Sequence record: OR062947.1
Source: Escherichia phage 348Ecol098PP
Length of the DNA: 64,000 nt
Direction: 5' to 3' (one strand)
Shown: positions 26,419-61,227 of the stretch, piece by piece
Layout: each line of letters opens with the position of its first letter
Position numbering within the stretch: the first letter of the stretch is position 1
The notes under the pieces: model-generated
Told to the model about the DNA's origin: nothing
What the model saw: only the letters and a program-made list of their open reading frames with translations
Databases searched by the model: none
Program-made: the position numbers and the translations under genes

Positions 26419-26427
26419 GGAATTATT

Positions 26428-27887: not shown

Positions 27888-27918
27888 ATAGATAAATAAC
27901 CCTTAACTTGAGGTAAAT

Positions 27919-28200: not shown

Positions 28201-28204
28201 ATGT

Positions 28205-28224
28205 GGGGACCTTCGGGTCCCTTT
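28205..28224 (+). terminator. rho-independent terminator
   Basis: gggacc-ttcg-ggtccc + TTT. Confidence 0.65.
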
Positions 28225-28249
28225 AGGGGGTTAAAATATTTAAAAAAGT

Positions 28250-28285
28250 AGTGTACATGCTTTTAGGATATGTTATTATAGACCT
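28250..28285 (+). promoter_or_regulatory. early promoter
   Basis: gtgtaca ... tgttattatagacctatc. Confidence 0.45.
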
Positions 28286-28317
28286 ATCGAAACGAAATGA
28301 GTAAATTGGAGAATAAA

Positions 28318-29298: not shown

Positions 29299-29435
29299 GC
29301 TTATAGGAAGTTCTGAGGTAACAAAAGCCATAAAGATGAATAATCATATGGCTTACCTCAAAGAAGGACACCAGGAACCTACTGAGGGCATAGAAATATT
29401 TAAAATAATGATGTACAAATCAAAGAGGATATGTT

Positions 29436-29723
29436 ATGGATTTTATGCAAAAAATTAAAGCCGCAGTCGAACTGTATGCTCATCGTATGGTTAGTTCTAC
29501 GATGCAATATAGTGAGGAGGTTCGCCAGGACTCTTCCTTGAAAGGAAAAACTAAAGCCTTAATTACCTTAGATCGTTTGCAAAAGAATGCCATAGAGATG
29601 CTCCAGTACGACAAGGGTGTATATAAGAAAGAACAGGAAGAGAAACTTAAATCTGAAAAATTACAAAAAATCCCGAAGTCTGTTTGGTTCAGTGGAAAAA
29701 ATACCGAAAAAAGTTTCTTTTAG
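29436..29723 (+). CDS. hypothetical protein
   Basis: 95-aa ORF with SD agagga. Confidence 0.55.
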   Translation: MDFMQKIKAAVELYAHRMVSSTMQYSEEVRQDSSLKGKTKALITLDRLQKNAIEMLQYDKGVYKKEQEEKLKSEKLQKIPKSVWFSGKNTEKSFF

Positions 29724-29724
29724 T

Positions 29725-29762
29725 TGTTTACAAGGTCTATGGTTATGTTATTATAGACCTAT
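29725..29762 (+). promoter_or_regulatory. early promoter / PeSL
   Basis: GTTTACA; inverted repeat aggtctat/atagacct around tgttattat. Confidence 0.55.
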
Positions 29763-29781
29763 CAACTACTGGAGGTAAAAC

Positions 29782-30309
29782 ATGAACGCTAAAGATATTT
29801 TCAACCTGGTAAATTATAACGACGGTAAATTTAAATCTGAAGCACAAAGCAAGTTCTTTAATGACGTTGCTTATGGTAACGAGATTACCGTGGACGGAGG
29901 TCAGATTTTCAAATCTCGCTGGAATTGGATTGTTATCATCGATTCAGTTGGAATTGTGGAAGTCTACAAAAACACTAACAAAAAACGTACATTATTCTGG
30001 TCTCGTGAAACTAACGAGCAGTACAAAAAGGATAAAGCATCTCGTTTATCCAAAGTAACCCAGGAAGATATCGACTTCATCAAGAAAGATATCGAGATGT
30101 ACGAAAATTTAATTGCTGAAGACCAGGCAGTACTCGATAAGTTTGATGAAATTAAAGCTTCTCGTGAAATCCCTGACTTCATGAAAGAAACAGTAAACGA
30201 ACGATACGCTCTCACTTCAGAACGTATTGCAAACTATACAAAACAGAAAGCAGAACGTATTAGTACTCTTCGGAAATTTGAAGAACGTTTAAAGACGGTT
30301 CACGCATAA
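29782..30309 (+). CDS. hypothetical protein
   Basis: 175-aa ORF. Confidence 0.6.
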   Translation: MNAKDIFNLVNYNDGKFKSEAQSKFFNDVAYGNEITVDGGQIFKSRWNWIVIIDSVGIVEVYKNTNKKRTLFWSRETNEQYKKDKASRLSKVTQEDIDFIKKDIEMYENLIAEDQAVLDKFDEIKASREIPDFMKETVNERYALTSERIANYTKQKAERISTLRKFEERLKTVHA

Positions 30310-30311
30310 AC

Positions 30312-30336
30312 GCTTTACCCAAGGACGGGTTATAAT
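30312..30336 (+). promoter_or_regulatory. early promoter
   Basis: gctttac ... TATAAT. Confidence 0.45.
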
Positions 30337-30371
30337 GGTTTTGAGTTCCAATTCAATCTGAGGAAATAGTT

Positions 30372-31367
30372 ATGAGCATTACATCTGATGCGGTAAAACA
30401 TGAAATTAACGGTTTATGTGCTTCACAGATTAAAGTGTGGTTTAAAGACCATAACGATCGCAGAGCACTTAATTATGAACAAATTGCTATCCAAGTTCAT
30501 CAATTACTGGTTAGTAAATTTGATTTTCATATGCCGTCTGAAATCTATACTAATCTGCCGCGAGCACTTATTAAAGCGTGTAAAGGTTATGGAAAATCAA
30601 TGGCTGATGGAATCTTCAGCGCGCTGAATAAACTTAACGTTCTGTCGATGATTAACTCTAACAACATCCTGCGTAATCTAGGACGTACTGATTTGTTCGG
30701 CCGTGAACAGTGTAAAATGCCTTTGAAATGGATTGTTGCTCATCTTAACGAGAACCAAACACGTTTTATGGCCGTAACAGCACGCTTACAAATGGGCCTA
30801 GATCGTCAGATGAACTTTAAAACTCATCCACGTTATTCAGGTTCAACTGACTTTTATAAATGTGAGCTTCAAAAGGTTGCAGGTAAAACTGTCTTAGTAG
30901 TTCGTGTAACGTTTGAAGGACGACGTCAAGGATATTTTGACATAATCGGCTCCGGGCTTAAACATTGTGGATTTATCGACGAAGTTGATATCAAGCGAGA
31001 CGGCATTGGATACCGTATTGGATATGTTTGTACTCTTAAAGAAGAGATTTCAGGACCAGCACCAGGACTAAAAGACGTTAGATATAAAGACGAGCTCGTT
31101 GAAGAAATAAAAGAAGTTGAATATGATATCAACCAAGAAGATGCTCTTAAAGACCTTATTGATGAACCGAACCAAGACGTTATTCCTGTTCAGAAATTTG
31201 AATCAAAACATGCTGAGCAAATCAAATACTTTGAAGCTTTGATTAACGAACTTAATGTAACTATTCAACAGACTGACGATGAAATCTCACGATTAGCAGG
31301 TTTAAACGGTAAAAATAAAACAGAACGAGCTAATCTTATTCAGGTAGTAAAACTTCTTAAGGAATGA
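30372..31367 (+). CDS. hypothetical protein with C-terminal coiled coil (array member 1)
   Basis: 331 aa. Confidence 0.6.
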   Translation: MSITSDAVKHEINGLCASQIKVWFKDHNDRRALNYEQIAIQVHQLLVSKFDFHMPSEIYTNLPRALIKACKGYGKSMADGIFSALNKLNVLSMINSNNILRNLGRTDLFGREQCKMPLKWIVAHLNENQTRFMAVTARLQMGLDRQMNFKTHPRYSGSTDFYKCELQKVAGKTVLVVRVTFEGRRQGYFDIIGSGLKHCGFIDEVDIKRDGIGYRIGYVCTLKEEISGPAPGLKDVRYKDELVEEIKEVEYDINQEDALKDLIDEPNQDVIPVQKFESKHAEQIKYFEALINELNVTIQQTDDEISRLAGLNGKNKTERANLIQVVKLLKE

Positions 31368-35563: not shown

Positions 35564-36381
35564 ATGTAGTATATAAACTATCATTTATTAATAGAATTAA
35601 TGCTAAAACCCCACCATATTATTACATTGGAAGTAAAACCAATTGCACTTTTGATGGAACGAATATTATTGATAAAAATGGTAAATTTTATTATTCGTCT
35701 TCGTCATCTTCCGAATTTCAAAAAGCCTTATTGAAAGAAACGCCGAAAGTTGAAATATTATATTTTCAATTAGTCGGAGATGAACAAATAACTAGCATTG
35801 AAGCTGAATTTCAAAAGAATATAGAAAAAGATGTATGGAATAAAGAGTATTTTAATTTAGCATATGCTGATGGCAAATTTACGACATATGGTATTTCTCC
35901 TTCTAAAGAAACTAGAGAAAAACAATCAATAACCATGATTAAAAGAAATCGTAATAAAGGCAAAAATCATGGATTTTATGGAAAGCATCATACTAATTTA
36001 GCCAGAAAGAAAATATCAGAAGCTTCTAAAAAATACTGGAAAGAAAATCCGCATCGTGGATTTTCGCATACAAAGGAAGCTAAAATTAAAATTGGAATTT
36101 CATCTTCTATCAGGCATAAAGGAAGTGGAAATCCGATGTATGGTGTAAAACCTTGGAAAACTCCGAACGCAATTAAATCTGGTACTTGTATATTATGGTT
36201 AAAATACGCAGAAATTTTATATGATTATTTAGGTCCAGATTTTAAAAGTAAATCATCTATTTTTGCGGATTTAAACTTACCGAAATTTAGAATTGATAAT
36301 TTCATCAAAAGGTTTAAAATGGGTTGGAACCCATATTTAGACGAAGAATTTCAAAAGGATAAATTAGAATTATGTCTTTAG
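35560..36381 (+). CDS. GIY-YIG homing endonuclease (Seg / I-TevI-like) with NUMOD3-like repeats
   Basis: VYKLSFINRIN...YYYIGSKTN GIY-YIG motif; repeated GxxHxxExKxKIS motifs; strongly AT-rich. Confidence 0.75.
   Translation: MNVVYKLSFINRINAKTPPYYYIGSKTNCTFDGTNIIDKNGKFYYSSSSSSEFQKALLKETPKVEILYFQLVGDEQITSIEAEFQKNIEKDVWNKEYFNLAYADGKFTTYGISPSKETREKQSITMIKRNRNKGKNHGFYGKHHTNLARKKISEASKKYWKENPHRGFSHTKEAKIKIGISSSIRHKGSGNPMYGVKPWKTPNAIKSGTCILWLKYAEILYDYLGPDFKSKSSIFADLNLPKFRIDNFIKRFKMGWNPYLDEEFQKDKLELCL
35560..36381 (+). mobile_element. free-standing homing endonuclease gene between gene 49 and nrdD
   Basis: Same as CDS; composition differs from flanking genes. Confidence 0.6.
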
Positions 36382-38189
36382 AGAAAGATGTTTTAAATTT
36401 TATTTCAAATAAAGATAAAGAATTAAATACCGAAAACGCCAACAAAGATTCTCGTGTCTTTCCAACAAAAAGAGATTTAATGGCCGGTATTGTTTCTAAA
36501 CATATCGCTTGTCGTATTCTTCCAAGTCATATTGTAAATGCCCATAATGTTGGATTAATTCATTTTCATGATTTAGATTACAGTATATCATTGCCTTTTA
36601 CTAATTGCTGTTTAGTAGATTTAAAAGGAATGCTTGAGAATGGATTTAAATTAGGCAATGCTCAAATTGAAACGCCTAAATCGATTGGTGTTGCTACTGC
36701 AATTATGGCACAAATTACTGCACAAGTTGCTTCTCACCAGTATGGCGGAACTACATTTGCGAATGTAGATAAAGTACTTTCTCCTTATGTTAAACGCACA
36801 TATGCAAAACATATTGAGGATGCAGAAAAATGGCAAATCGCTGATGCGTTGAATTATGCTCAATCTAAAACAGAAAAAGATGTCTATGACGCATTTCAAG
36901 CTTATGAGTATGAAGTAAATACTCTCTTTAGTTCAAACGGACAAACGCCTTTTGTAACAATTACATTTGGTACGGGAACTGACTGGACTGAACGAATGAT
37001 TCAGAAAGCAATTTTGAAAAATCGTATTAAAGGTCTTGGTCGTGATGGGATAACTCCTATTTTCCCTAAGCTTGTTATGTTCGTTGAAGAAGGTGTTAAT
37101 CTTTATAAAGATGATCCGAACTATGATATTAAACAGCTTGCTCTAGAGTGCGCAAGCAAAAGAATGTATCCTGACATTATTTCGGTTAAGAATAATAAAG
37201 CTATTATCGGTTCTTCAGTTCCTGTTTCTCCAATGGGCTGCCGTAGTTTCTTGAGTGTATGGAAAGATTCGACTGGCAATGAAATTCTTGATGGACGTAA
37301 TAATCTTGGTGTTGTAACACTGAATCTTCCTCGTATCGCATTAGATTCTTATATTGGAACCCAGTTCAATGAACAGAAATTTGTTGAATTATTCAATGAA
37401 CGAATGGATTTATGTTTTGAAGCATTGATGTGCAGAATTAGTTCCTTAAAAGGAGTTAAAGCGACTGTTGCTCCTATTCTTTACCAAGAAGGTGCATTCG
37501 GGGTTCGTCTTAAACCTGATGACGATATAATTGAGTTATTTAAAAACGGTAGAAGTTCAGTGTCTTTGGGATACATTGGTATTCACGAATTGAATATTCT
37601 TGTCGGTCGTGATATTGGACAAGAAATTTTAACTAAAATGAATGCTCATCTTAAACAGTGGACTGAAAGAACCGGATTTGCTTTTAGTTTATATTCTACT
37701 CCTGCTGAAAACCTTTGTTATCGCTTCTGTAAACTTGATACAGAAAAATATGGAAGCGTAAAAGATGTTACCGATAAAGGTTGGTACACTAACAGTTTCC
37801 ACGTTTCAGTAGAAGAAAATATTACTCCGTTTGAAAAGATTTCTCGTGAAGCGCCGTATCATTTCATTGCGACAGGCGGTCACATTTCTTATGTTGAACT
37901 TCCAGATATGAAAAACAATTTAAAGGGACTTGAGGCTGTCTGGGATTATGCTGCACAACATTTAGATTATTTTGGTGTTAATATGCCAGTAGATAAATGT
38001 TTTACATGCGGAAGTACCCATGAAATGACTCCTACTGAAAACGGATTTGTTTGTTCAGTTTGCGGAGAAACTGATCCTAAAAAGATGAACACCATAAGAA
38101 GAACATGCGGTTATTTGGGAAATCCGAACGAACGCGGATTTAATCTCGGTAAAAATAAAGAAATCATGCATAGGGTTAAACACCAATGA
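36372..38189 (+). CDS. nrdD: anaerobic ribonucleoside-triphosphate reductase NrdD
   Basis: 605 aa; C-terminal glycyl radical motif RTCGYLG and Zn-Cys cluster; uninterrupted. Confidence 0.9.
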   Translation: MSLEKDVLNFISNKDKELNTENANKDSRVFPTKRDLMAGIVSKHIACRILPSHIVNAHNVGLIHFHDLDYSISLPFTNCCLVDLKGMLENGFKLGNAQIETPKSIGVATAIMAQITAQVASHQYGGTTFANVDKVLSPYVKRTYAKHIEDAEKWQIADALNYAQSKTEKDVYDAFQAYEYEVNTLFSSNGQTPFVTITFGTGTDWTERMIQKAILKNRIKGLGRDGITPIFPKLVMFVEEGVNLYKDDPNYDIKQLALECASKRMYPDIISVKNNKAIIGSSVPVSPMGCRSFLSVWKDSTGNEILDGRNNLGVVTLNLPRIALDSYIGTQFNEQKFVELFNERMDLCFEALMCRISSLKGVKATVAPILYQEGAFGVRLKPDDDIIELFKNGRSSVSLGYIGIHELNILVGRDIGQEILTKMNAHLKQWTERTGFAFSLYSTPAENLCYRFCKLDTEKYGSVKDVTDKGWYTNSFHVSVEENITPFEKISREAPYHFIATGGHISYVELPDMKNNLKGLEAVWDYAAQHLDYFGVNMPVDKCFTCGSTHEMTPTENGFVCSVCGETDPKKMNTIRRTCGYLGNPNERGFNLGKNKEIMHRVKHQ

Positions 38190-38656
38190 ATTATGATAGA
38201 TTTTATCCTTGCGATTTTGTGAATGGCCCTGGTTGCAGGGTCGTTCTTTTCGTTACAGGTTGTTTGCATAAATGCGAAGGGTGTTATAATAAATCAACAT
38301 GGAATGCTAGAAATGGTATTCCATTCACCGGAGAGACACTAGAACAATTAATTGAATGTTTGAATAATGATTATATAGAAGGATTGACTATAACCGGAGG
38401 TGACCCTCTCTATCCTGACAACCGAGATGTTGTTCATTGCATCGTTCAAACAGTAAAAAATCTTTATCCCAATAAAAGCATTTGGTTGTGGACAGGATAT
38501 AAGTTTGAAGATATTAAACAACTAGAAATGCTTAAATATGTTGATGTTATTATTGATGGGAAGTATGAGAAAAATCTTCCGACTAAAAAGCTGTGGCGAG
38601 GATCAGATAATCAGCGACTTTGGTCAAATACCGATGGGGTGTGGAAACATGATTAA
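38186..38656 (+). CDS. nrdG: anaerobic RNR activating enzyme NrdG (radical SAM)
   Basis: CLHKCEGCYN = CxxxCxxC. Confidence 0.85.
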   Translation: MNYDRFYPCDFVNGPGCRVVLFVTGCLHKCEGCYNKSTWNARNGIPFTGETLEQLIECLNNDYIEGLTITGGDPLYPDNRDVVHCIVQTVKNLYPNKSIWLWTGYKFEDIKQLEMLKYVDVIIDGKYEKNLPTKKLWRGSDNQRLWSNTDGVWKHD

Positions 38657-50656: not shown

Positions 50657-53368
50657 ATGAAAGAATTTTACTTAACGGTTGAACAGATTGGTGATTCAAT
50701 TTTTGAACGTTACATCGATTCTAACGGCCGTGAACGTACTCGTGAAGTAGAATATAAACCATCACTGTTTGCTCATTGTCCAGAAAGTCAGGCTACGAAA
50801 TATTTCGATATCTACGGTAAGCCGTGTACTCGTAAGTTGTTCGCTAATATGCGTGATGCCTCCCAATGGATTAAACGCATGGAAGATATCGGTCTTGAAG
50901 CACTTGGCATGGACGATTTCAAATTGGCGTATTTGTCTGACACTTATAACTATGAAATCAAATACGACCATACAAAAATTCGTGTGGCTAACTTCGACAT
51001 CGAAGTAACATCTCCCGATGGGTTCCCTGAGCCATCACAAGCAAAACATCCGATTGATGCTATCACCCATTATGACTCAATTGACGACAGGTTCTACGTA
51101 TTTGATCTATTGAATTCTCCATATGGTAATGTAGAAGAATGGTCTATTGAAATCGCTGCTAAGCTTCAAGAACAAGGCGGTGATGAAGTTCCATCCGAAA
51201 TTATCGATAAAATCATTTATATGCCGTTCGATAACGAAAAAGAATTGTTGATGGAATATCTCAACTTCTGGCAACAGAAAACTCCTGTCATTTTGACTGG
51301 ATGGAACGTTGAGTCATTTGATATTCCATATGTGTATAACCGAATCAAGAATATTTTTGGCGAATCTACTGCGAAACGTTTATCACCACATCGTAAAACT
51401 CGTGTTAAAGTTATCGAAAACATGTATGGTTCTCGTGAAATCATTACATTGTTCGGTATCTCTGTTCTTGATTACATTGACCTTTACAAAAAATTCTCTT
51501 TTACCAATCAACCATCGTATTCTCTGGATTACATTTCAGAATTTGAATTGAACGTTGGTAAACTGAAATATGACGGCCCTATTTCTAAGCTTCGTGAAAG
51601 CAATCACCAACGATATATTTCTTATAACATTATCGACGTGTATCGTGTATTGCAAATTGATGCTAAGCGTCAGTTCATCAACTTGAGTTTGGACATGGGT
51701 TATTATGCTAAAATTCAGATTCAATCTGTGTTTAGCCCAATTAAAACATGGGATGCTATTATTTTTAATAGCCTTAAAGAGCAGAACAAGGTGATTCCAC
51801 AAGGTCGTTCTCACCCGGTTCAACCTTATCCTGGCGCTTTTGTTAAGGAACCTATTCCAAATCGATACAAATATGTAATGAGTTTCGACCTTACATCTCT
51901 GTATCCAAGTATTATTCGCCAAGTGAATATTAGCCCGGAAACAATAGCAGGAACGTTTAAAGTAGCTCCATTGCATGATTATATTAACGCAATCGCTGAA
52001 CGTCCTTCAGATGTGTACAGTTGTTCTCCTAACGGCATGATGTATTATAAAGACCGTGATGGTGTAGTTCCAACTGAAATCACTAAAGTCTTTAATCAAC
52101 GTAAAGAACATAAAGGTTATATGCTTGCGGCTCAACGTAATGGCGAAATAATTAAAGAGGCATTGCATAATCCTAATCTTTCTGTTGATGAACCATTAGA
52201 TGTTGATTATCGTTTCGACTTCAGTGATGAGATTAAAGAAAAGATTAAAAAGTTGTCTGCTAAATCTCTTAATGAAATGTTGTTTAGAGCTCAACGTACT
52301 GAAGTTGCAGGTATGACTGCCCAAATTAACCGTAAATTGCTTATCAACTCACTTTATGGTGCACTTGGAAACGTTTGGTTCCGTTATTATGATTTGCGTA
52401 ATGCTACTGCAATCACAACATTTGGTCAAATGGCTTTACAGTGGATTGAACGTAAAGTTAATGAATATCTGAATGAAGTTTGTGGTACAGAAGGTGAAGC
52501 TTTCGTTCTTTATGGTGATACAGACTCTATTTACGTATCTGCTGATAAAATTATCGATAAGGTTGGTGAATCTAAATTCCGTGATACCAACCATTGGGTA
52601 GACTTCTTAGATAAGTTTGCACGTGAACGTATGGAACCAGCTATTGATAGAGGTTTCCGTGAAATGTGTGAATACATGAACAATAAACAACACTTAATGT
52701 TCATGGACCGAGAAGCTATCGCTGGTCCTCCACTTGGTTCTAAAGGTATTGGTGGATTCTGGACTGGTAAGAAACGTTATGCATTAAACGTGTGGGATAT
52801 GGAAGGTACTCGTTACGCTGAGCCTAAACTCAAAATCATGGGTCTAGAGACTCAGAAATCTTCGACTCCTAAAGCAGTACAGAAAGCTCTTAAAGAATGT
52901 ATTCGTCGTATGCTTCAAGAAGGTGAAGAATCATTACAAGAATATTTTAAAGAGTTTGAAAAAGAATTCCGTCAATTGAATTATATTAGCATCGCGTCTG
53001 TATCTTCTGCGAATAACATTGCTAAATATGATGTTGGTGGATTCCCTGGCCCCAAATGCCCATTCCATATTCGTGGAATTCTGACGTATAACCGGGCTAT
53101 CAAAGGTAATATCGATGCACCGCAAGTTGTAGAAGGTGAAAAAGTATATGTTCTGCCTTTACGTGAAGGAAACCCATTCGGTGATAAATGTATCGCATGG
53201 CCTTCTGGTACTGAAATCACAGATTTAATTAAAGACGACGTACTTCATTGGATGGACTACACTGTTCTCCTTGAGAAGACATTTATTAAACCACTTGAAG
53301 GATTCACATCAGCAGCGAAACTCGATTACGAGAAGAAAGCATCTCTGTTCGATATGTTCGATTTTTGA
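50657..53368 (+). CDS. 43: DNA polymerase gp43 (family B)
   Basis: 903 aa; exo motifs FDIEV, YNIIDVYRV, pol motifs DxxSLYPS, YGDTDS; N-terminus MKEFYLTVEQIGDSIFERYIDSNGRERTREVEYKPSLFAH matches recalled RB69 gp43. Confidence 0.97.
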   Translation: MKEFYLTVEQIGDSIFERYIDSNGRERTREVEYKPSLFAHCPESQATKYFDIYGKPCTRKLFANMRDASQWIKRMEDIGLEALGMDDFKLAYLSDTYNYEIKYDHTKIRVANFDIEVTSPDGFPEPSQAKHPIDAITHYDSIDDRFYVFDLLNSPYGNVEEWSIEIAAKLQEQGGDEVPSEIIDKIIYMPFDNEKELLMEYLNFWQQKTPVILTGWNVESFDIPYVYNRIKNIFGESTAKRLSPHRKTRVKVIENMYGSREIITLFGISVLDYIDLYKKFSFTNQPSYSLDYISEFELNVGKLKYDGPISKLRESNHQRYISYNIIDVYRVLQIDAKRQFINLSLDMGYYAKIQIQSVFSPIKTWDAIIFNSLKEQNKVIPQGRSHPVQPYPGAFVKEPIPNRYKYVMSFDLTSLYPSIIRQVNISPETIAGTFKVAPLHDYINAIAERPSDVYSCSPNGMMYYKDRDGVVPTEITKVFNQRKEHKGYMLAAQRNGEIIKEALHNPNLSVDEPLDVDYRFDFSDEIKEKIKKLSAKSLNEMLFRAQRTEVAGMTAQINRKLLINSLYGALGNVWFRYYDLRNATAITTFGQMALQWIERKVNEYLNEVCGTEGEAFVLYGDTDSIYVSADKIIDKVGESKFRDTNHWVDFLDKFARERMEPAIDRGFREMCEYMNNKQHLMFMDREAIAGPPLGSKGIGGFWTGKKRYALNVWDMEGTRYAEPKLKIMGLETQKSSTPKAVQKALKECIRRMLQEGEESLQEYFKEFEKEFRQLNYISIASVSSANNIAKYDVGGFPGPKCPFHIRGILTYNRAIKGNIDAPQVVEGEKVYVLPLREGNPFGDKCIAWPSGTEITDLIKDDVLHWMDYTVLLEKTFIKPLEGFTSAAKLDYEKKASLFDMFDF

Positions 53369-53408: not shown

Positions 53409-54044
53409 ATGAAAACTACTCCTATTACTATCGCTATTGACGCAATCATAAAACAATCTTCTTCTTTGGCCGCTATGGCCAAAGTAATTAGTCAAAACCC
53501 TGCTCGTTATAATGCTATTCTAGAAACTCTTCGACGTCCGGGACTTAGTAATTATGAAAGTCGTGTAATTATTACAGGTGTTGGTAAGAATGCTAATATT
53601 GCAACTAAAGCTTCTGAGACATTTGCTTCACTCGGTATCCCGAGTATGTACTTGAACACTGGGCATTATTCTCACGGCGATGCAGGATTCATTGCGCCTA
53701 ATGATGTGTTGATTCATATTAGTCGTTCTGGTAAAACTGAAGAAATGATAGGCGTGGCTAAGCATCTTAAAATGATTCGACCGAACGTCAAACAGATTCT
53801 GTTGCATTGTAACCCAGACATTCCACAAGAAAATGAAGCCCTTTTTGATTACTCTTTCTGTACAGGCATCGCAGTAGAGGTTGATGAGAATTCTCTGGCT
53901 CCGACTATGTCCACTACATTGTTGTTAGCGCTTATCGATACGTTTGCTATCAACCTTTCGTCTGAACGTGGATTTACCTCTAATGATTTCCTTAAGTTCC
54001 ATCCAGGCGGTGCACTAGGTGCCATGTTACGAGGCGAGCAATGA
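53409..54044 (+). CDS. SIS-domain sugar-phosphate isomerase (KdsD/GutQ-like arabinose-5-phosphate isomerase core)
   Basis: ITGVGKNANIATKASETFASLGIPS...HGDAG...ISRSGKTEE...LAPTMSTT matches SIS/KdsD pattern. Confidence 0.8.
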   Translation: MKTTPITIAIDAIIKQSSSLAAMAKVISQNPARYNAILETLRRPGLSNYESRVIITGVGKNANIATKASETFASLGIPSMYLNTGHYSHGDAGFIAPNDVLIHISRSGKTEEMIGVAKHLKMIRPNVKQILLHCNPDIPQENEALFDYSFCTGIAVEVDENSLAPTMSTTLLLALIDTFAINLSSERGFTSNDFLKFHPGGALGAMLRGEQ

Positions 54045-54225
54045 AAGCAATAACAATAGGACTTTTACTATTGATGCTTGTCATGACTATCTACTGGAGC
54101 TTAACGGCTCCAGTAATGATTCCAACACTTGTAATTGGATGGATTATGATTGGACTACAAGCAAAGTATGAATGCTTTAACTAGAATAGTGTACAATACT
54201 CCTACTTACCAATGAGGACCACAAC

Positions 54226-55911
54226 ATGAAAAAAGCTGTTATTCTTGGTGCTGGACTAGCAACTCGTTTGTATCCAATAACGCATCATATTCCTAAGGTG
54301 CTTGTTAACTATAAACAAGACACTATTCTGAGCAATTTGTATACAATTTATTCTGACCTTGGCGCAGATGAAATTATTGTAGTAGTTCATTCAAAATTTG
54401 CTGGAACTGTTCGAGCTTATTGTGAGCAAGAAGGGTTCAATGTGACTATTCGTACAGTTGATGAAGCGTATGGTTCTGCTTATGCTCTTGCTAAATTGCA
54501 CAAAGATTTAGACGGCCATAATGTAATTGTTAACTGGTGTGATATTATTCCTGATTTTGGTTCATGGTCTTGGAATGTTAACGCAATCTATGTTAAGGGT
54601 GACGAATGTCGATATAATTTCGACGGTGAAAATATCACTAACGTAGGTTCAACAGGTGGTAATGTTGTAGGAATTTACCAGTTCAAAGACTGGGAATTCT
54701 ATATGGGTTCTACCGATGAGGAAATTCATGAATACTGCAAAGGACGTGATTTCGTAGAATTCCTTTACGGCAGTGCATTCAATAAATCAGAGCTTATGAA
54801 TCTAATTGATTTAGGTGATATGCCTAAACTTGAAAAGGCTCATGAAGTTCGTGAACTTAATCGTAGTTTTAATGCAGTTGAAATTGGTGAAGAAACTGTA
54901 ACTAAATTCGCATTAACCGAACAAGGCCGAGCTCTTCAGAAAGATGAGATTTCATGGTATCTTAAAGTGAAATCAGATTCAGTTCCTCAGTTAGTTTCTG
55001 TTAATGAAAATAACTTTGAAATGGAACGCATTAAAGGTAAGCCGGCATTTGAATATATTAAATCCAAATCGAGTCTCGCTCGTCCACAAATTGTTGATGC
55101 AATTTTAGATGCACTGAAATTCAGCACAGACACTTATTTTGTAAGTCCTGAAACTGTTCGTCGTGATTTCACTAAAGAATTCTATACGAAAGTTATTGAT
55201 CGTTGTGAAAGTATTCAACCATTGATTGATTCATTTGGTAAAATAACACATGTGAACTACACTAAGATTGGGCGTCTGAAGCCAATGTTGAAACAAGCTT
55301 TAGAACACCTTATTCGTTATCATAACCGTTCTCAGGGACAGTACTCTGTTATTCATGGTGACCCGAACTTCAGTAATACTATGATTACTGATAATGGCGA
55401 AGTCAAGTTTATCGACCCTCGTGGATATTTTGGTGAAACCAAGATTTACGGGCCAAAATTGTATGATGAAGCTAAAGTGCTTTACGCTGTTTCAGGATAT
55501 GATGAATTCAACGCTAATCCGACCTGGGGGCAGTTTACTATTGATGAAACAACTTGTAATGTGACTATTAACATCAATCCATTAGTTTACAAATATGGAA
55601 AGATGAGTTCGTTTAACGAGTATCATCATTTGGCGGTGGCAATTATCTGGATTGCATTAGGTGGTTATTTCAAGAATAATCCACTTAAAGCGGTAGCCGC
55701 ATATTATAAAGGTATGGAACTTCTGACTAAGCAATTACGTAACATGGGCCGTGTACTTCAGGACGGCACCATTAGTTATGACGTAGCAGAACCTGTAACG
55801 GCTACTCTGATTACAAAAAATCCTGGTAAATGGGTACTAACTGATAAAGAAACTGGTGTTTCCTATCGTCCAATCGGTGGCGATATCACTCATCAATGGG
55901 AACGAATCTAA
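54226..55911 (+). CDS. bifunctional sugar-1-phosphate nucleotidyltransferase / APH-like sugar kinase
   Basis: N-terminus AVILGAGLATRL (NDP-sugar pyrophosphorylase); C-terminal HGDPNFSN and FIDPRG (APH/choline-kinase fold). Confidence 0.8.
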   Translation: MKKAVILGAGLATRLYPITHHIPKVLVNYKQDTILSNLYTIYSDLGADEIIVVVHSKFAGTVRAYCEQEGFNVTIRTVDEAYGSAYALAKLHKDLDGHNVIVNWCDIIPDFGSWSWNVNAIYVKGDECRYNFDGENITNVGSTGGNVVGIYQFKDWEFYMGSTDEEIHEYCKGRDFVEFLYGSAFNKSELMNLIDLGDMPKLEKAHEVRELNRSFNAVEIGEETVTKFALTEQGRALQKDEISWYLKVKSDSVPQLVSVNENNFEMERIKGKPAFEYIKSKSSLARPQIVDAILDALKFSTDTYFVSPETVRRDFTKEFYTKVIDRCESIQPLIDSFGKITHVNYTKIGRLKPMLKQALEHLIRYHNRSQGQYSVIHGDPNFSNTMITDNGEVKFIDPRGYFGETKIYGPKLYDEAKVLYAVSGYDEFNANPTWGQFTIDETTCNVTININPLVYKYGKMSSFNEYHHLAVAIIWIALGGYFKNNPLKAVAAYYKGMELLTKQLRNMGRVLQDGTISYDVAEPVTATLITKNPGKWVLTDKETGVSYRPIGGDITHQWERI

Positions 55912-56297
55912 TGCACCGTGTAGAAAACATGCTTAATCTTTGTTTTGATGTCGATGATTGTATAACAGAGTGGAATAACAATCGTGATTACGTGAACTTC
56001 AAACCAGACGTCGAAATGGTGTCTGCCATTAATGCCCTATATGATGCAGGGCATACCATAACGCTTTACACTGCTCGCGGTATGAAGTCAGTAGGTCCTG
56101 GTCGTATAGCAATTGACATTCTCCCAAGTCTGATTCAGAACTTGGCAAACATTGGCTTGAAGTACCATAATTTGCTAACACATAAACCAGTATATGATTG
56201 GATTATCGACGACAAAGCTATGCGTCCTGACGAATTCAAAGCTCTTATGAATAAAGGCGAATTCGAAACATTTAAATCATATAAACCGAATCTATAA
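55911..56297 (+). CDS. HAD-superfamily phosphatase (KdsC-like)
   Basis: Motif I FDVDD, later T, K-P and DD motifs. Confidence 0.7.
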   Translation: MHRVENMLNLCFDVDDCITEWNNNRDYVNFKPDVEMVSAINALYDAGHTITLYTARGMKSVGPGRIAIDILPSLIQNLANIGLKYHNLLTHKPVYDWIIDDKAMRPDEFKALMNKGEFETFKSYKPNL

Positions 56298-56351
56298 TAA
56301 TTTAAGTAAGACCTGCAAAAACCATCGCAACAATTAACGCGAGATGCAAAA

Positions 56352-57512
56352 ATGAATACCTTTAAAATCGGAACGAATTTTGATTTAGCTCTTCTTGATA
56401 AAATCGTAGAGCTCAATAAAACTTATCCTAATAGCTTGATAAACGAAGTATACGGCTCTACAAGAGAAATGGCTTTTGTAGCAGCCAGACCTGATTTTAG
56501 GCTTCCTGACGTTGACAAAAAGATGTTAGAAGATTACGTTAAACGTTGTAACGAATTAGGTATTTGCTTTAACTATACACTCAACACGATAAATCCTGGT
56601 TCAAAAAGAGAACTAGTTGAGTGGAAGAAGAAAGCTATTCAGGATTATGTTCAGTATCTTTGGTCAATAGGCGTATGGCGTATTACTATCGCTAACCCTG
56701 TTGTTATGGAAATTGTTCGTGAAGTCAATAAAGACATTGAGATTGAAGTTTCAACAATTCTACATGTCGATGCTGTAACTCAAATCAAATACTTGCATGA
56801 CCAATATAATATCAAAAAGGTCTGCTGTGGAATTCATAAGAACCGTTCAGTTTCTTTCCTGAAGCGTGCAGCAGAGTTTTGCAATAAGAACAATATAATA
56901 TTTGAAGTTCTCGTAAATGAATTCTGCTCTAATGCTGGTAAAGGGTATACAACACATTGTAGTTATCGTGACTCTTGCTATATTTTCCATAGCACCGATG
57001 TTACAGTAGATGATGCCAAATCCTTAAATGGATATCCTATGCAGCACTGTATTAAAGCTCGTGATACAGACCCATTTAACTGGTTGAGAACTCGTTTTGT
57101 TCGTCCTCAAGATTTGAAACTTTATAATGATATTGGTATCACTCAATTCAAAGTTTCAGGACGTACAGGTAGCACCGACTACATTTTGAAAGTTCTTGAA
57201 GCTTATGCTTCTGAAAAGTTTGAAGGTAATTTGTTGGAATTGTGGAAGCCTTTAGAGACTATTTTCACTCTTGAAAATGAGACCGAGTTTTCACATACGG
57301 TAAATATTGAAACCTCTTTGTTAGATGGCTTTTTAGAAAAAAGGTGGTTCAAACATCCAGATTTCGATTGTGCTAATGAAATCTGCGGGACGACGTGTAC
57401 ATATTGTGAAAGATATTATAAACGTCAGTTATCTAAAAATGGGTTAGCAGAAAACTCTATATCTATTATTGATATAACTAACTCTGATGACGCTTTGAGG
57501 TACCCGGAATGA
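56352..57512 (+). CDS. Cys-rich enzyme of unknown function (possible metal / Fe-S binding)
   Basis: 386 aa; Cys clusters C-x10-C-x5-C and C-x5-C-x3-C-x2-C near C-terminus. Confidence 0.6.
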   Translation: MNTFKIGTNFDLALLDKIVELNKTYPNSLINEVYGSTREMAFVAARPDFRLPDVDKKMLEDYVKRCNELGICFNYTLNTINPGSKRELVEWKKKAIQDYVQYLWSIGVWRITIANPVVMEIVREVNKDIEIEVSTILHVDAVTQIKYLHDQYNIKKVCCGIHKNRSVSFLKRAAEFCNKNNIIFEVLVNEFCSNAGKGYTTHCSYRDSCYIFHSTDVTVDDAKSLNGYPMQHCIKARDTDPFNWLRTRFVRPQDLKLYNDIGITQFKVSGRTGSTDYILKVLEAYASEKFEGNLLELWKPLETIFTLENETEFSHTVNIETSLLDGFLEKRWFKHPDFDCANEICGTTCTYCERYYKRQLSKNGLAENSISIIDITNSDDALRYPE

Positions 57513-57670
57513 TTTCTAGAAAAACTTTTAACCACCAACTTAATGAAGAGATTTTGACTATGAAAATTAACAGCAACGAACAAATTCTTAAAAAGGCCCT
57601 TATGGGCCTGTTTGAAACTAAAGCGGCTAAAGTGATTAAAGAAACCTGTTCAACTAGAATACTACGCTGA
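57509..57670 (+). CDS. small hypothetical ORF (53 aa), possibly frameshifted gene
   Basis: ATG overlaps upstream stop; downstream frame continues protein-like to 57749. Confidence 0.3.
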   Translation: MISRKTFNHQLNEEILTMKINSNEQILKKALMGLFETKAAKVIKETCSTRILR

Positions 57671-57745
57671 TGCATTTCTTCATAGTGTTCTTGGAAGTAT
57701 CGATGCTGAAGCTTTACGTTATATCAACATCGCTAAGAAATTCAA

Positions 57746-57772
57746 ATAAGCTTTATGAATTGAGTATATAAT
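57746..57772 (+). promoter_or_regulatory. candidate MotA-dependent middle promoter for gene 42
   Basis: MotA-box-like AAGCTTTA, 11-nt spacer, TATAAT. Confidence 0.45.
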
Positions 57773-57790
57773 AACTGTATTGAGGTAAAC

Positions 57791-58507
57791 ATGGGAAAAC
57801 ATAACACAATGAAATATATTAAAGCCGCAGATTTTCAATCCGCATTTAAAGCTGTCAATCGTGAAATTTTAGAAAATCCACAGTTCGTTACTGACTCTCG
57901 TATTGGACGTTGTAATGAAATTGGGTCTATGACAGTAGTTGTTGATACCCCTTCATCATTCAAAATGACCGACCCACGTATTAATCGCATCTCTTATGAA
58001 TATGCTGAAGATTTCTGGAAATTTATGATTTCTGGTGGTACTGATGCAGAAGAAGCATTTAAGGCATATCCTAACGTTGCTAAATTTATTTCTAAACCTA
58101 AATCAGATGCTTTGCCTGCAAACTTCAACACTTTCTACGGTCCACGAATTGCGGCCCAGTTACCAGCTCTTCTCAAAGAACTTAAAGAGAAACCTAATTC
58201 ACGAAGAGTTGTGTTTCAAATTCTTGAAAGTTCAGATCAGGCTTTGCTTGATTCGGATGAAACACTTGAATATCCATGTACTGACTCAGTGACTTATTAT
58301 ATTCGTGATGGTAAGCTTTATACCCACTGTCATATGCGTTCTCAGAACTGTGCTGTTGTTATGCAGTTGGATTTTTATCTCCAAGGAAAATTACTTCATT
58401 ATATCGCTAACGAATGTGGTGTAGAAGTTGGTGATTATACTCATACCATGGTAAGTGCCCATGTGTTTGAACGTGATTTTGATTATGTTAAAGGATTCCT
58501 TGACTAA
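57791..58507 (+). CDS. 42: dCMP hydroxymethylase gp42-like (thymidylate synthase fold)
   Basis: TS-family motifs RRVVFQIL, PCTDSVTYYIRDGKLYTHCHMRSQN, AHVFE; position between 43 and uvsX. Confidence 0.75.
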   Translation: MGKHNTMKYIKAADFQSAFKAVNREILENPQFVTDSRIGRCNEIGSMTVVVDTPSSFKMTDPRINRISYEYAEDFWKFMISGGTDAEEAFKAYPNVAKFISKPKSDALPANFNTFYGPRIAAQLPALLKELKEKPNSRRVVFQILESSDQALLDSDETLEYPCTDSVTYYIRDGKLYTHCHMRSQNCAVVMQLDFYLQGKLLHYIANECGVEVGDYTHTMVSAHVFERDFDYVKGFLD

Positions 58508-59406
58508 TGGCTATTTTCCGCGTACCTATCTTGAGTATGCGGTCTTATGAAACTGGACAGTATGCTATCCTTAAGGATGGCAACTTCCAACTTCATTTGC
58601 ACCGTGCTAATCCGGGTGATGTGATTACATATCCACGTAATGCATCTGATATTAAAGAATGTGAACGTCTTTTCCCAGAATTTAAGTTTGTTCCATTATG
58701 GTATAAAGATAACGCATATAACACTCGTAAATATTTCTGGTCTGAAAATGAATTTGTGGTTGATTCATTAATTGATTATTATGATTGTGATTTTCTAATC
58801 ACAGATATCACTGGATATGACGGTACTTTTGACGTAGAATTCAATTTCAATATCACTGCAGACCCTAATAAACCACGTTTTTATATTGACGAATTCTTAA
58901 AAACCGATATGTTGTCGGTTAATCGTTCACTTCAAACTACTGTGTTGAATAAACGTCAAAAGGAAGTGCTGGTTAACGCTGGTGCCGATGGTAATAAGAT
59001 TATCGTAACCCAGAAAGTTATACGTCCTTCCATCATGCAGCGTCTTGTAGGTGATTTGGCTCCTATTCATCTAGATGGTATTTTTCATCCATTTCGAATT
59101 AGTGATCCGTGCTATCGTTTTGAACAAGTGGTTGAATGCGCGATTCAATTAGGTCAACCGCTTTATATAACCGATCCAAATAATAGCTTCGACAGAAATA
59201 AGTATCCTGAAGAAGCGTTGATTCGAATTTTTAAACCAACTAAAACTGAGTACTATCAAATTCTTAAAGGACGACCGAAGATTCAATATTTCGAAAATCC
59301 TGAAGAAGTATTTCATCCAGGTCTTGGTGAGTTCATCTACTTTAACGCTTTAATTTCTTCGCCGTATAATATACCTAAATATGAAGATGTCGTAATCGAG
59401 GAATAA
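58507..59406 (+). CDS. hypothetical protein in the beta-glucosyltransferase position
   Basis: 299 aa, no resemblance to recalled T4 beta-gt; ATGA coupling to gene 42. Confidence 0.6.
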   Translation: MAIFRVPILSMRSYETGQYAILKDGNFQLHLHRANPGDVITYPRNASDIKECERLFPEFKFVPLWYKDNAYNTRKYFWSENEFVVDSLIDYYDCDFLITDITGYDGTFDVEFNFNITADPNKPRFYIDEFLKTDMLSVNRSLQTTVLNKRQKEVLVNAGADGNKIIVTQKVIRPSIMQRLVGDLAPIHLDGIFHPFRISDPCYRFEQVVECAIQLGQPLYITDPNNSFDRNKYPEEALIRIFKPTKTEYYQILKGRPKIQYFENPEEVFHPGLGEFIYFNALISSPYNIPKYEDVVIEE

Positions 59407-59407
59407 A

Positions 59408-59956
59408 ATGGCTAAAATTATTTTAGTAGATGGCCCAGATAATGCTGGTAAAACAACTTTCATTAATGACATAATGGAAATTAGTGAAAGATATGTAAAG
59501 ATTGATTTCCCTAAACGAACAGTTGATGGACGTTTCGATGTTAAGTCTCGAAATGAAGTTGGCTGTTTCGAAACGATGTTGAATTATTTAGACCCTACTA
59601 AGATTTATCTGTTAGACCGTGGATATATTAGTAACTGGGTTTATGGACGTATTCGACAAGACGCGGACTCGGTTCTTGACGTTTATGAACAGGATTATGT
59701 TCGTCTTTGCCAAAACCATGATGTGTTCACAATTATTTTAACACGTAACGAAATGACTGAAAGTTTTGAAGACGACCTTATTACTTTGTCTTCATTCGGT
59801 TTTAATACAGTCATTTCACATTTTGAAGAGTTTGCAATTCATAACAAAATCCAAACGTATCAATTACTTAATCATGATGGTGCTAACAAAGTTATAGGAT
59901 TTAATGCAAGCGAACGTAATGATTTGATTACAGAAATCATCAAATGGGCTCGTTAA
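59408..59956 (+). CDS. thymidylate-kinase-like P-loop nucleotide kinase
   Basis: P-loop VDGPDNAGKTT and DRGYISNWVYG resembling the TMK DRY motif. Confidence 0.65.
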   Translation: MAKIILVDGPDNAGKTTFINDIMEISERYVKIDFPKRTVDGRFDVKSRNEVGCFETMLNYLDPTKIYLLDRGYISNWVYGRIRQDADSVLDVYEQDYVRLCQNHDVFTIILTRNEMTESFEDDLITLSSFGFNTVISHFEEFAIHNKIQTYQLLNHDGANKVIGFNASERNDLITEIIKWAR

Positions 59957-60054: not shown

Positions 60055-61227
60055 ATGTCTGATTTAAAATCTCGTCTGATTAAAGCTTCTACTTCTAAAA
60101 TGACTGCAGACTTGACTAAGTCTAAGCTGTTTAATAATCGTGATGAAGTCCCTACTCGTATTCCGATGTTGAATATTGCACTAGGTGGTGCTCTGAATGC
60201 AGGATTGCAATCAGGCTTGACTATTTTTGCTGCACCTTCTAAACATTTTAAAACATTGTTTGGACTGACCATGGTTGCAGCATATATGAAGAAATATAAA
60301 GATGCAATTTGTTTGTTCTATGATTCAGAATTTGGTGCTTCAGAATCTTATTTTCGTTCAATGGGTGTTGATTTAGACCGTGTAGTTCATACTCCGATTC
60401 AATCTGTCGAACAACTTAAAGTTGATATGACTAATCAGCTTGACGCGATTGAACGTGGTGATAAAGTTATTATCTTTATCGATTCAATCGGTAATACTGC
60501 ATCTAAGAAAGAAACCGAAGATGCGTTGAACGAGAAAGTTGTAGGTGATATGTCTCGTGCTAAGGCACTTAAATCTCTGTTCCGCATTGTGACTCCTTAT
60601 CTGACTATTAAAGATATTCCATGTGTTGCAATCAACCATACAGCAATGGAAATCGGCGGACTATATCCTAAAGAGATTATGGGCGGCGGTACAGGTATTC
60701 TTTACTCTGCTAACACTGTATTCTTTATCTCTAAACGTCAGGTTAAAGAAGGTACAGAATTGACCGGTTATGACTTCACGTTGAAAGCAGAAAAATCTCG
60801 CACAGTTAAAGAGAAATCTACTTTCCCGATCACGGTTAATTTTGATGGCGGTATTGACCCATTCAGTGGCTTGTTAGAAATGGCAACTGAAATTGGTTTT
60901 GTAGTTAAGCCTAAAGCCGGGTGGTATGCTCGTGAATTCCTTGACGAAGAAACAGGCGAAATGATTCGTGAAGAAAAATCATGGCGTGCTAAAGCTACTG
61001 ATTGTGTAGAATTTTGGGGGCCGTTGTTTAAACATAAGCCTTTCCGAGATGCAATTGAAACTAAATATAAACTAGGTGCTATCTCTTCTATTAAAGAAGT
61101 TGATGACGCTGTTAACGACCTTATTAATTGCAAAGCAACAACTAAAGTTCCGGTTAAAACTTCTGATGCTCCGTCTGCAGCAGATATAGAAAACGACCTT
61201 GACGAAATGGAAGATTTCGATGAATAA
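60055..61227 (+). CDS. uvsX: RecA-like recombinase UvsX
   Basis: MSDLKSRLIKASTSKMTADLTKSKLFNNRDEV...; RecA fold motifs. Confidence 0.95.
   Translation: MSDLKSRLIKASTSKMTADLTKSKLFNNRDEVPTRIPMLNIALGGALNAGLQSGLTIFAAPSKHFKTLFGLTMVAAYMKKYKDAICLFYDSEFGASESYFRSMGVDLDRVVHTPIQSVEQLKVDMTNQLDAIERGDKVIIFIDSIGNTASKKETEDALNEKVVGDMSRAKALKSLFRIVTPYLTIKDIPCVAINHTAMEIGGLYPKEIMGGGTGILYSANTVFFISKRQVKEGTELTGYDFTLKAEKSRTVKEKSTFPITVNFDGGIDPFSGLLEMATEIGFVVKPKAGWYAREFLDEETGEMIREEKSWRAKATDCVEFWGPLFKHKPFRDAIETKYKLGAISSIKEVDDAVNDLINCKATTKVPVKTSDAPSAADIENDLDEMEDFDE

Follow-up and report, generated by a model that had tools for sequence, protein, structure and literature searches.

This work concerns a block of genes at positions 53409-59956 of a 64,000-nucleotide stretch of DNA (the window) from Escherichia phage 348Ecol098PP (OR062947.1), located between the DNA polymerase gene 43 (50657-53368) and uvsX (60055-61227). 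The phage is a Mosigvirus closely related to RB69, and judging from its genes alone the block is very probably a copy of the RB69/HY126-type cluster that converts cytosine into mono- and di-arabinofuranosyl-5-hydroxycytosine. The arabinosyl-5-hydroxycytosine (ara-5hoC) gene cluster of RB69-type phages has already been published. For one protein of the block, a 386-amino-acid (aa) member of the U32 family corresponding to RB69 gp50, we propose, giving it a little better than an even chance, the function of an O2-independent hydroxylase that depends on prephenate and acts at C5 of deoxypyrimidine nucleotides or DNA; such an enzyme would provide a second route to 5-hydroxycytosine (5hoC) beside the hydroxylase of the thymidylate synthase (TS) fold encoded in the same block (RB69 gp48). 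It would then be the first U32 hydroxylase found to act on DNA precursors.

The U32-family protein and its genomic partners

The 386-aa protein can be assigned to the U32 family both by sequence and by fold, a membership that had not been recognised in the first-pass annotation of the window. Profile and fold methods alone provide this link: a search of PDB sequences with the protein returned no match, and pairwise BLASTP comparisons with UbiU, UbiV, TrhP and RlhA of E. coli gave nothing significant. A profile of 121 family members has RlhA as its best match in E. coli (E 2.9e-6 over 207 columns), and the phage motif C203-x5-C209-Y-x-x-H aligns with C-x6-C-Y-x-x-H of RlhA. Ten Cys residues are invariant in the phage family, including Cys158, 192, 203, 209 and 233 as well as those of a C-terminal tail, C340-x4-C-x3-C-x2-C352, and Cys177 is found in about 98% of the sequences. 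For the C-terminal domain that TrhP and RlhA possess, no match was detected in the phage protein, which has the four-Cys tail instead. Across genera the U32 protein is 82-89% identical; the polymerase and the TS homolog are conserved to a similar degree, the sugar enzymes less so.

For UbiU/UbiV, TrhP and RlhA, the U32 proteins investigated to date, there is a link to O2-independent, prephenate-dependent hydroxylation (PMC10990095; PMC6599085; PMC5727448). Prephenate is the demonstrated oxygen donor for UbiU/V (PMC10990095), and RlhA is required for the hydroxylation of cytidine C5 in 23S rRNA (ho5C2501) (PMC6599085, PMC5727448). In the study of RB69 by Lee et al., gp50 appears as a "sugar or heterocycle reductase" in a table entry without discussion, and the RNA pyrimidine-hydroxylation pathways (RlhA, TrhP) are described as unrelated to the TS-fold enzyme (PMC13326640). 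In GenBank the gp50 homologs are named peptidase, collagenase-like protease or "putative enzyme involved in UDP-arabinose biosynthesis". A literature search, with He et al. 2026 and Mahler et al. 2025 outside its scope, returned nothing relevant that would tie U32, chorismate mutase, prephenate or RlhA/TrhP to phages or to RB69.

When IMG/VR was scanned with the U32 family, 47 loci were retrieved, 32 of which are not T4-like; the U32 proteins of the latter are 40-55% identical, and the loci are mostly of low GC content, several of them with DnaE-type polymerases, on contigs of up to 294 kb, the length of IMGVR_UViG_3300045988_171958. Two further U32 loci were found in metagenome contigs of 80 and 466 kb. 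The partners of U32 in the 32 non-T4-like loci are homologs of other proteins of the block, namely the 299-aa predicted glycosyltransferase (GT299; 17 loci), the nucleotidyltransferase/kinase fusion AfhE (17), the thymidylate-kinase-like (Tmk-like) protein (15) and the arabinose-phosphate isomerase (API; 10). A TS-like hydroxylase was found by BLASTP, phmmer and a TS hidden Markov model in none of them; the ThyA-like gene of one locus (L029), considered as a candidate, carries L143, D169 and N177 and encodes an ordinary thymidylate synthase. The reciprocal scan with the family of 5-hydroxy-dCMP (5hodCMP) synthases yielded 51 loci, including 24 non-T4-like ones with the same kinds of partners as in the U32 loci ("TS-GT-Tmk", "TS-GT-isomerase-AfhE", where GT stands for glycosyltransferase), and U32 is present in 0 of these 24. 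No non-T4 contig appears on both lists, on which 15 T4-like contigs are shared. The cassettes run in parallel, with "Tmk-GT-U32" corresponding to "TS-GT-Tmk" and "GT-isomerase-AfhE-U32" to "TS-GT-isomerase-AfhE". Judging from these gene neighbourhoods, U32 and the TS-like hydroxylase appear to be a case of non-orthologous displacement, the pattern expected if two unrelated enzymes share one job.

The second line of evidence concerns the supply of prephenate. Between U32 and the TS homolog, LC53 (Winklervirus) and Entb_45 (Kanagawavirus) have a gene whose product scores as a chorismate mutase of the CM_2 family (44.6 and 40.9 bits, respectively, at a cutoff of 27). By tblastn, a chorismate mutase match is present in 56 phage records from about 13 host genera (Klebsiella, Serratia, Yersinia, Enterobacter, Proteus, Providencia, Edwardsiella, Erwinia, Pectobacterium, Morganella, Kosakonia, Shewanella and, for phage EcS1, Escherichia), and every one of these records also has a U32 match. 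Among 136 neighbour proteins from 24 dereplicated U32 loci, the most frequent Pfam families are Thymidylate_kin (7), DAHP_synth_1 (6), SIS (5) and CM_2 (4). A DAHP synthase lies beside U32 in seven of the 32 non-T4-like loci; six of these proteins score as Pfam DAHP_synth_1, and four of the six are fused to CM_2. The fused proteins (L038, L039, L041 and L042; 320-351 aa) carry the chorismate mutase domain C-terminally and are encoded directly upstream of U32, while the DAHP synthase homologs of L010, L027 and L052 are without a clear chorismate mutase domain, the matches in L052 being weak. Thus, in these loci too, the neighbours of U32 are enzymes that direct carbon to chorismate and prephenate. 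An alternative identity of the DAHP_synth_1 neighbours as KdsA, on the Kdo route from arabinose 5-phosphate (A5P), was rejected, with NCBIfam E-values of 1e-47 to 3e-70 for DAHP synthase versus 1e-14 to 1e-17 for KDO8P synthase. Enzymes of the entry into the shikimate pathway are unusual in phages; in these loci they always stand beside U32.

Taken in the proposed role, the U32 protein would draw oxygen from prephenate rather than from O2 and make 5-hydroxypyrimidine nucleotides during growth of the host without oxygen. Of the conceivable substrates, dCMP, dUMP, a triphosphate or DNA, we favour a mononucleotide, because the Tmk-like kinase is a constant companion. The window also encodes NrdD and NrdG, the class III anaerobic ribonucleotide reductase (at about 36372-38656), which share 94% and 98% identity with RB69. 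The phage thus has the means to provide dNTPs without O2; gp48, by contrast, needs O2. Many uncultured low-GC phages with DnaE-type polymerases would use U32 as their only hydroxylase for glycosylated 5-hydroxypyrimidine DNA.

A number of observations weigh against this assignment. In air, U32 is dispensable for the modification: gp48 alone gives 5-hydroxydeoxycytidine (5hodC), and the Acinetobacter phage DLP3 makes ara-5hoC without U32. The arabinose cluster is likewise found without U32 in the Acinetobacter phage DLP1 and in the E. coli Dhakavirus JS98. Mosigviruses, this window included, have no chorismate mutase gene, and their U32 would have to rely on PheA/TyrA of the host. The gp49-like gene beside U32 is truncated in this phage. 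The canonical [4Fe-4S] motif, CX6CX15CX3/4C, is only partly kept, with C203/C209 matching the first two Cys residues of RlhA and the CX3C pair absent, and therefore the ligands of a cluster are uncertain. The metagenomic loci were viewed to +/-10 kb, and the scans of sequence collections rely on exact peptide patterns. Against the reading of the cluster as a whole stand observations on the transfer of the sugar: single glycosyltransferases of DLP3 were without activity on 5hoC DNA, and the first arabinosyl transfer was not reconstituted (PMC13326640). Finally, the GT299 homolog of the Shewanella phage Thanatos, TH1_063, reportedly made UDP-xylose from UTP and xylose 1-phosphate in vitro (PMC12838424), a pyrophosphorylase activity that sits oddly with a GT-B fold. 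In the same study the modification of Thanatos was interpreted as hydroxy-cytosine bearing a deoxypentose, and for the hydroxyl there was "no valid hypothesis" (PMC12838424); the phage has both a TS-like hydroxylase and a U32 protein (TH1_065). An attempt to use host lifestyle as a test was abandoned: the lack of U32 in phages of the strictly aerobic Acinetobacter fits, but it is confounded by phylogeny and contradicted by JS98.

Three other functions of the U32 protein have to be considered. It could belong to the sugar branch, as a reductase or another enzyme that tailors the pentose or its nucleotide. We regard this as unlikely, since the GT299-U32 pair occurs in six viral loci where sugar genes are missing within 10 kb (a Tmk-like gene is adjacent in four of the six), and since DLP1/DLP3 and JS98 possess the full arabinose genes without U32. 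Moreover, the path from ribulose 5-phosphate to UDP-arabinofuranose (UDP-Araf) is already complete with three enzymes, and a role in the sugar branch would leave unexplained both the linkage with chorismate mutase and DAHP synthase and the mutual exclusion with the TS-like hydroxylase.

About as unlikely, or marginally more so, is an action on RNA, in which U32, together with chorismate mutase where present, would hydroxylate U34 of tRNA (TrhP-like) or rRNA (RlhA-like) and thereby tune translation. RNA is indeed the target of the characterised pyrimidine-directed U32 proteins (PMC6599085, PMC5727448), among which RlhA is the best E. coli match; prephenate also feeds the synthesis of cmo5U, and T4-like phages encode tRNAs. 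However, in every lineage seen U32 lies within a DNA-modification operon, conserved alongside it are a homolog of a DNA glycosyltransferase and a kinase of the dNMP type, it alternates with a dCMP hydroxylase, and it ends in the four-Cys tail rather than in the C-terminal domain of TrhP and RlhA.

The Pfam and PHROG names, as well as many GenBank annotations, suggest a collagenase-like peptidase that would process phage or host proteins. The probability of this is close to negligible: work on U32 proteins has to date pointed to hydroxylation and not to proteolysis (PMC10990095), the ten invariant Cys residues suggest metal or Fe-S sites, and in all 47 viral loci the surrounding genes are those of nucleotide and sugar metabolism. 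On balance, C5 hydroxylation of deoxypyrimidines is the function that we favour for U32.

Some U32 loci have further genes of note. In L037 (8689-9948), a gene for an IS605 OrfB/TnpB (Cas12f-like) transposase is found inside the modification cassette, directly upstream of U32. In LC53 (L002, 4352-4990), a putative endonuclease is encoded between the HAD and U32 genes. In the very large, phage-like JGI contig of 466 kb (L009, 7447-9086), U32 overlaps the end of a gene of the dCMP-deaminase family, in the company of Tmk, a UDG-family gene, DnaE and SSB; neither GT299 nor sugar genes were detected within 8 kb, and this locus may represent a different 5-hydroxypyrimidine chemistry.

The predicted TS-fold hydroxylase and the probable identity of the modified base

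The gene of the 238-aa TS homolog had been described in the first-pass annotation as a gene 42-like hydroxymethylase, and the sugar was expected to be transferred onto 5-hydroxymethylcytosine (hmC) in DNA, as had been reported for RB69. These two claims do not stand, because the protein carries the signature of another enzyme and is nearly identical to a solved one. In an alignment with ThyA and T4 gp42, C146 is kept, L143 is replaced by Glu, N177 by Asp and D169 by Asn; T4 gp42 keeps D169. Asn at the position of ThyA D169 is the diagnostic residue of the 5hodCMP synthase (PMC13326640). The homolog is identical in 237 of 238 residues to the chains named "Thymidylate synthase" in the PDB entries 9IQC, 9IR2 and 9IQU. 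These entries were deposited in one series with 9IR0, a "phage HY126 glycosyltransferase"; we take 9IQC and the phosphatase of the haloacid dehalogenase (HAD) type in 9IQW to be HY126 proteins. A PDB sequence search with the homolog matches TS and MilA, and gives no significant match to T4 gp42.

Expression of RB69 gp48 leads to 5hodC (243 Da), with 18O incorporated from 18O2, and the protein binds flavin (PMC13326640). By analogy, the homolog in the window is best regarded as a flavin- and O2-dependent dCMP 5-hydroxylase rather than a hydroxymethylase, and would convert dCMP into 5hodCMP. In RB69 the gene 1 kinase phosphorylates 5hodCMP (PMC13326640), and the close counterpart of that kinase in the window should do the same before the nucleotide is incorporated into DNA. 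The activities of these two enzymes, and likewise those given below for the fusion enzyme and the HAD phosphatase, were demonstrated for near-identical proteins of related phages.

The product of the pathway is known from the relatives. The DNA of RB69 and DLP3 contains mono- and poly-arabinosylated 5hoC, with the sugar ether-linked directly to C5, as determined by mass spectrometry (MS) and nuclear magnetic resonance (NMR) (Lee et al. NAR 2026, PMC13326640), and an independent study of 2026 found 5-ara-dC and 5-ara-ara-dC in the Mosigvirus NP (PMC13390438). Arabinose in RB69 DNA was reported by Thomas et al. in 2018, who proposed arabinosyl-hmC (PMC6024577), an assignment since corrected. The model of 2018, in which a dCMP hydroxymethylase of the gene 42 type provides hmC for arabinosylation, could draw on the TS fold, on the N177D replacement and the acidic residue 143 that the homolog has in common with T4 gp42, on the first description of RB69 (PMC6024577), and on the label "dCMP hydroxymethylase" attached to the gene in many GenBank records. 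Nonetheless, it is refuted for RB69 and most improbable here: the arabinose of RB69, DLP3 and NP is ether-linked to C5 with no methylene, RB69 gp48 takes its oxygen from O2 and binds flavin, and the protein of the window has Asn169, where T4 gp42 has Asp, and nearly matches the solved enzyme. The base to be expected in this phage is thus 5hoC, as in the published analyses (PMC13326640, PMC13390438).

Predicted synthesis and transfer of arabinose

The part of the first-pass annotation that predicted hypermodification of DNA with a pentose, arabinose, rather than with glucose is borne out by the synteny and identity with RB69-type clusters. By their domains and motifs, the three enzymes of the UDP-Araf branch (isomerase, kinase/nucleotidyltransferase and HAD phosphatase) make a complete predicted set in the block, and they are 99% identical to the RB69 proteins. 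The family assignments proposed earlier for the SIS, nucleotidyltransferase/kinase, HAD, TS-fold and Tmk-like proteins were for the most part upheld.

The 211-aa isomerase matches SIS (PF01380, E 1e-10), KpsF/GutQ (TIGR00393, E 2e-32), KdsD (E 7e-31) and phrog_5670, as well as the structures 3etn, 5uqi and 2xhz (E 1e-19 to 1e-25), and has the motifs GVGK57 and SGKTEE107. By homology and from PMC13326640, it would convert ribulose 5-phosphate into A5P. The 561-aa fusion protein matches PF00483 (E 4e-9) in residues 3-99 and kinase families in residues 308-409, with further nucleotidyltransferase matches in NCBIfam and the motifs HGDPNFSN377 and DPRG397. By analogy with AfhE of HY126, it is assigned the activities of an A5P 1-kinase and an arabinofuranose-1-phosphate uridylyltransferase, so that it would phosphorylate A5P at C1 and later join arabinofuranose 1-phosphate to UMP. 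The HAD phosphatase, whose DVDDC motif lies at residue 18, matches the capsule biosynthesis phosphatase family TIGR01689 (E 4e-13), is nearly identical to PDB 9IQW (E 8e-88) and is related to 1xpj; its putative function, taken from PMC13326640, is the removal of the 5-phosphate from arabinose 1,5-bisphosphate to give arabinose 1-phosphate between the two steps of the fusion enzyme.

This assignment follows the part of the work of He et al. (2026) on HY126 that is recounted in PMC13326640. In that account, AfhE (equivalent to RB69 gp52:53) converts A5P into arabinose 1,5-bisphosphate and later forms UDP-Araf, AfhF (RB69 gp51) takes the 5-phosphate off the bisphosphate, and the route from A5P via arabinose 1,5-bisphosphate and arabinose 1-phosphate to UDP-Araf has no step with free arabinose. 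The earlier prediction that an NDP-arabinose is made from ribulose 5-phosphate holds, but its passage through free arabinose is, on that account, probably wrong.

Of the two transferase candidates named earlier, the 299-aa and the 386-aa protein, the latter is set aside by its U32 family membership and invariant Cys residues, and the former is supported by its predicted fold. The sequence of the 299-aa protein has no match in Pfam, NCBIfam or the PDB, T4 glycosyltransferases included, i.e. a PDB sequence search finds no solved relative. Its AlphaFold2 model (pLDDT 95.4, pTM 0.90) is matched by Foldseek to proteins of the GT-B fold, namely MshA (3c4q), 7qsg (TM 0.63), 5ze7 (TM 0.62) and the HY126 glycosyltransferase 9ir0, and to the related UDP-GlcNAc 2-epimerases. 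The model is consistent with the proposal that it is the first arabinosyltransferase, which would place arabinose on the 5-hydroxyl of 5hoC (PMC13326640). The HY126 glycosyltransferase 9IR0 has 367 aa, a length close to that of RB69 gp3 (366 residues) and unlike that of the 299-aa protein. The second transferase would be a homolog of RB69 gp3; by synteny the window corresponds to approximately 20-84 kb of RB69, and both the gp3-type second arabinosyltransferase and the dCTPase are expected beyond its ends.

The Tmk-like kinase has the motifs GPDNAGKT9 and DRG70. In unrelated phages a Tmk-like gene is found together with the GT299 homolog, in cassettes of the TS type as well as of the U32 type. 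We infer that it may be the cassette's own 5-hydroxy-dNMP kinase, alongside the working gene 1 kinase.

Conservation of the block

All seven open reading frames (ORFs) of the first-pass annotation were confirmed on the + strand at the coordinates first reported (Table 1). Coding sequence makes up 96.7% of the block, with stop and start codons that overlap or abut. The block is 97.6% identical in DNA to positions 24047-30598 of RB69 and reaches 98.2% identity with other genomes of Mosigvirus, it is fully syntenic with RB69 gp45-gp55 (proteins 97-100% identical to RB69), and at least 80% of it is covered in 151 phage records. The coding density, the junctions, the identity to RB69 and the number of records indicate that the ORFs are real, conserved genes and not chance ORFs. 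The GC content of 0.34-0.40 is the same as that of the flanks, and the composition profile carries no signal of foreign DNA. A scan for promoters and terminators found sites no more frequently than in shuffled sequence.

Table 1. Features of the cassette and the gene 1 kinase in the window
Feature	Coordinates	Strand	Remarks
Gene 1 dNMP kinase	5390-6124	+	tblastn 95.9% identity to RB69 gp159 over 244 aa
Putative D-arabinose-5-phosphate isomerase, 211 aa	53409-54044	+	SIS domain only, no CBS pair; RB69 gp55 homolog
Hydrophobic ORF, 47 aa (MKAITIGLLLLMLVM...)	54041-54184	+	ATG overlaps isomerase stop (ATGA)
Predicted bifunctional nucleotidyltransferase (N-terminal) and APH/choline-kinase-like kinase (C-terminal), 561 aa	54226-55911	+	RB69 gp53:52; AfhE-like
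Small HAD-type phosphatase (predicted), 133 aa	55896-56297	+	RB69 gp51; AfhF-like; alternative start at 55911 gives a protein of RB69 length
U32-family protein, 386 aa	56352-57512	+	RB69 gp50; Peptidase_U32 PF01136, E 6e-11, above threshold
gp49-like gene (phrog_8601)	57509-57749	+	frameshifted; 53 aa (57509-57670) vs 79 aa in RB69
Predicted TS-fold 5-hydroxy-dCMP synthase, 238 aa	57791-58507	+	RB69 gp48; PF00303, E 2e-15
Compact GT-B-fold glycosyltransferase (GT299, predicted), 299 aa	58507-59406	+	RB69 gp47:46
Thymidylate-kinase-like P-loop kinase, 182 aa	59408-59956	+	RB69 gp45; phrog_761, E 2e-45

The genes of the 561-aa and 299-aa proteins are single intact ORFs in this phage, and are split in the RB69 reference (NC_004928) into ORF053c/052c and ORF047c/046c, respectively. 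Lee et al. put these splits down to sequencing errors (PMC13326640), a view that the intact ORFs support.

The internal-protein locus of this phage may differ from that of RB69: no tblastn match to the RB69 internal protein IPI was found in the window at E 1e-5 (the ipI-syntenic region corresponds to RB69 76449-76748), and the neighbouring gene 1 is 96% identical.

Comparison with known systems and implications

The cluster shares genus and gene order with RB69 gp45-gp55 and the Afh cluster of HY126 (Lee et al. NAR 2026; He et al. Nat Chem Biol 2026; Mahler et al. Cell Host Microbe 2025), and differs from the RB69 reference in its two intact genes and in a +1 frameshift of the gp49-like gene. 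Its genome position is that of the T4 gene 42 system, where imm.1, imm, 42, b-gt and segA lie between gene 43 and uvsX, and the logic is also the same: a TS-fold enzyme acts on dCMP, and a kinase, the polymerase and a GT-B enzyme acting on DNA follow. In contrast to T4, however, Asn and not Asp is found at the position of ThyA 169, flavin- and O2-dependent hydroxylation replaces folate-dependent hydroxymethylation and leaves no CH2 bridge, the sugar is arabinofuranose made by the phage rather than UDP-glucose of the host, and the 299-aa family takes the place of b-gt.

DLP3 and DLP1 (Lazarusvirus) and the Dhakavirus JS98 share the AfhE-like protein, the HAD phosphatase, the TS-like hydroxylase, the 299-aa-type glycosyltransferase and the Tmk-like protein. 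They are without U32, the gp49-like gene and chorismate mutase, and JS98 is also without the isomerase; the DLP phages have two more glycosyltransferases and tri-arabinosyl chains.

If U32 is a hydroxylase, its nearest parallels are TrhO/TrhP (ho5U in tRNA) and RlhA (ho5C2501 in 23S rRNA) of E. coli. The likeness lies in hydroxylation of pyrimidine C5 by a U32 protein by way of prephenate, which for the phage is a prediction, and, for TrhO/TrhP, in the pairing of a U32 route with an unrelated O2-dependent enzyme for one product. On the other hand, the presumed phage substrate is a deoxynucleotide or DNA and not RNA, the phage protein has the extra CX4CX3CX2C tail and only part of the canonical four-Cys motif, and its O2-dependent partner is a TS-fold flavoenzyme and not a rhodanese-like protein such as TrhO. 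Similarly, UbiU/UbiV and UbiI/H/F are alternative routes of hydroxylation across a range of O2 levels. They act on the ring of a quinone and not on a pyrimidine, UbiU/V is a heterodimer working with UbiT as opposed to the single phage polypeptide, and the phage case is a genomic one.

According to the corrected annotation, the phage should carry ara-5hoC. This modification blocks many restriction enzymes and shapes the sensitivity to type IV systems (BrxU/GmrSD), which matters for phage therapy and engineering. If the proposed function of U32 is true, it explains how phages of gut bacteria could make an oxygen-bearing base without O2, and why genes for chorismate mutase and DAHP synthase are found in phages, i.e. 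to supply the oxygen donor. Prephenate-dependent hydroxylation would then extend from RNA and quinones to DNA, phages of the RB69 type would have two unrelated routes to 5hoC, mirroring TrhO/TrhP and UbiIHF/UbiUV, and U32 would serve, beside the D169N signature of the TS homolog, as a second metagenome marker of phages with 5-hydroxypyrimidine-modified DNA.

Small ORFs in the block

Two small ORFs were absent from the first-pass annotation. The hydrophobic ORF that follows the isomerase has no match in Pfam; its position equals that of RB69 ORF054c, of JS98 orf44 and of a 47-aa "transmembrane segment" protein of LC53, and it adjoins the place where T4 and JS98 have imm.

The gp49-like gene, when aligned with RB69, has one additional A near 57642. 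The 61 bases around it are 100% identical in six other phages (DCP548, PHB12, SSE1, PNJ-6, 308Ecol101PP and EP02SG), and therefore the insertion looks like an allele of the lineage rather than a read error. We also considered the ORF as a degenerate chorismate mutase and rejected this identity, no match to CM_2 or NCBIfam families being found with RB69 gp49, the fragment in the window or the gp49-like protein of TG1. Its sequence places the gp49-like protein in a separate family, not that of chorismate mutase: Tegunavirus has a gp49-like gene plus a separate gene for chorismate mutase, and in LC53 a gp49-like N-terminus is joined to a chorismate mutase domain.

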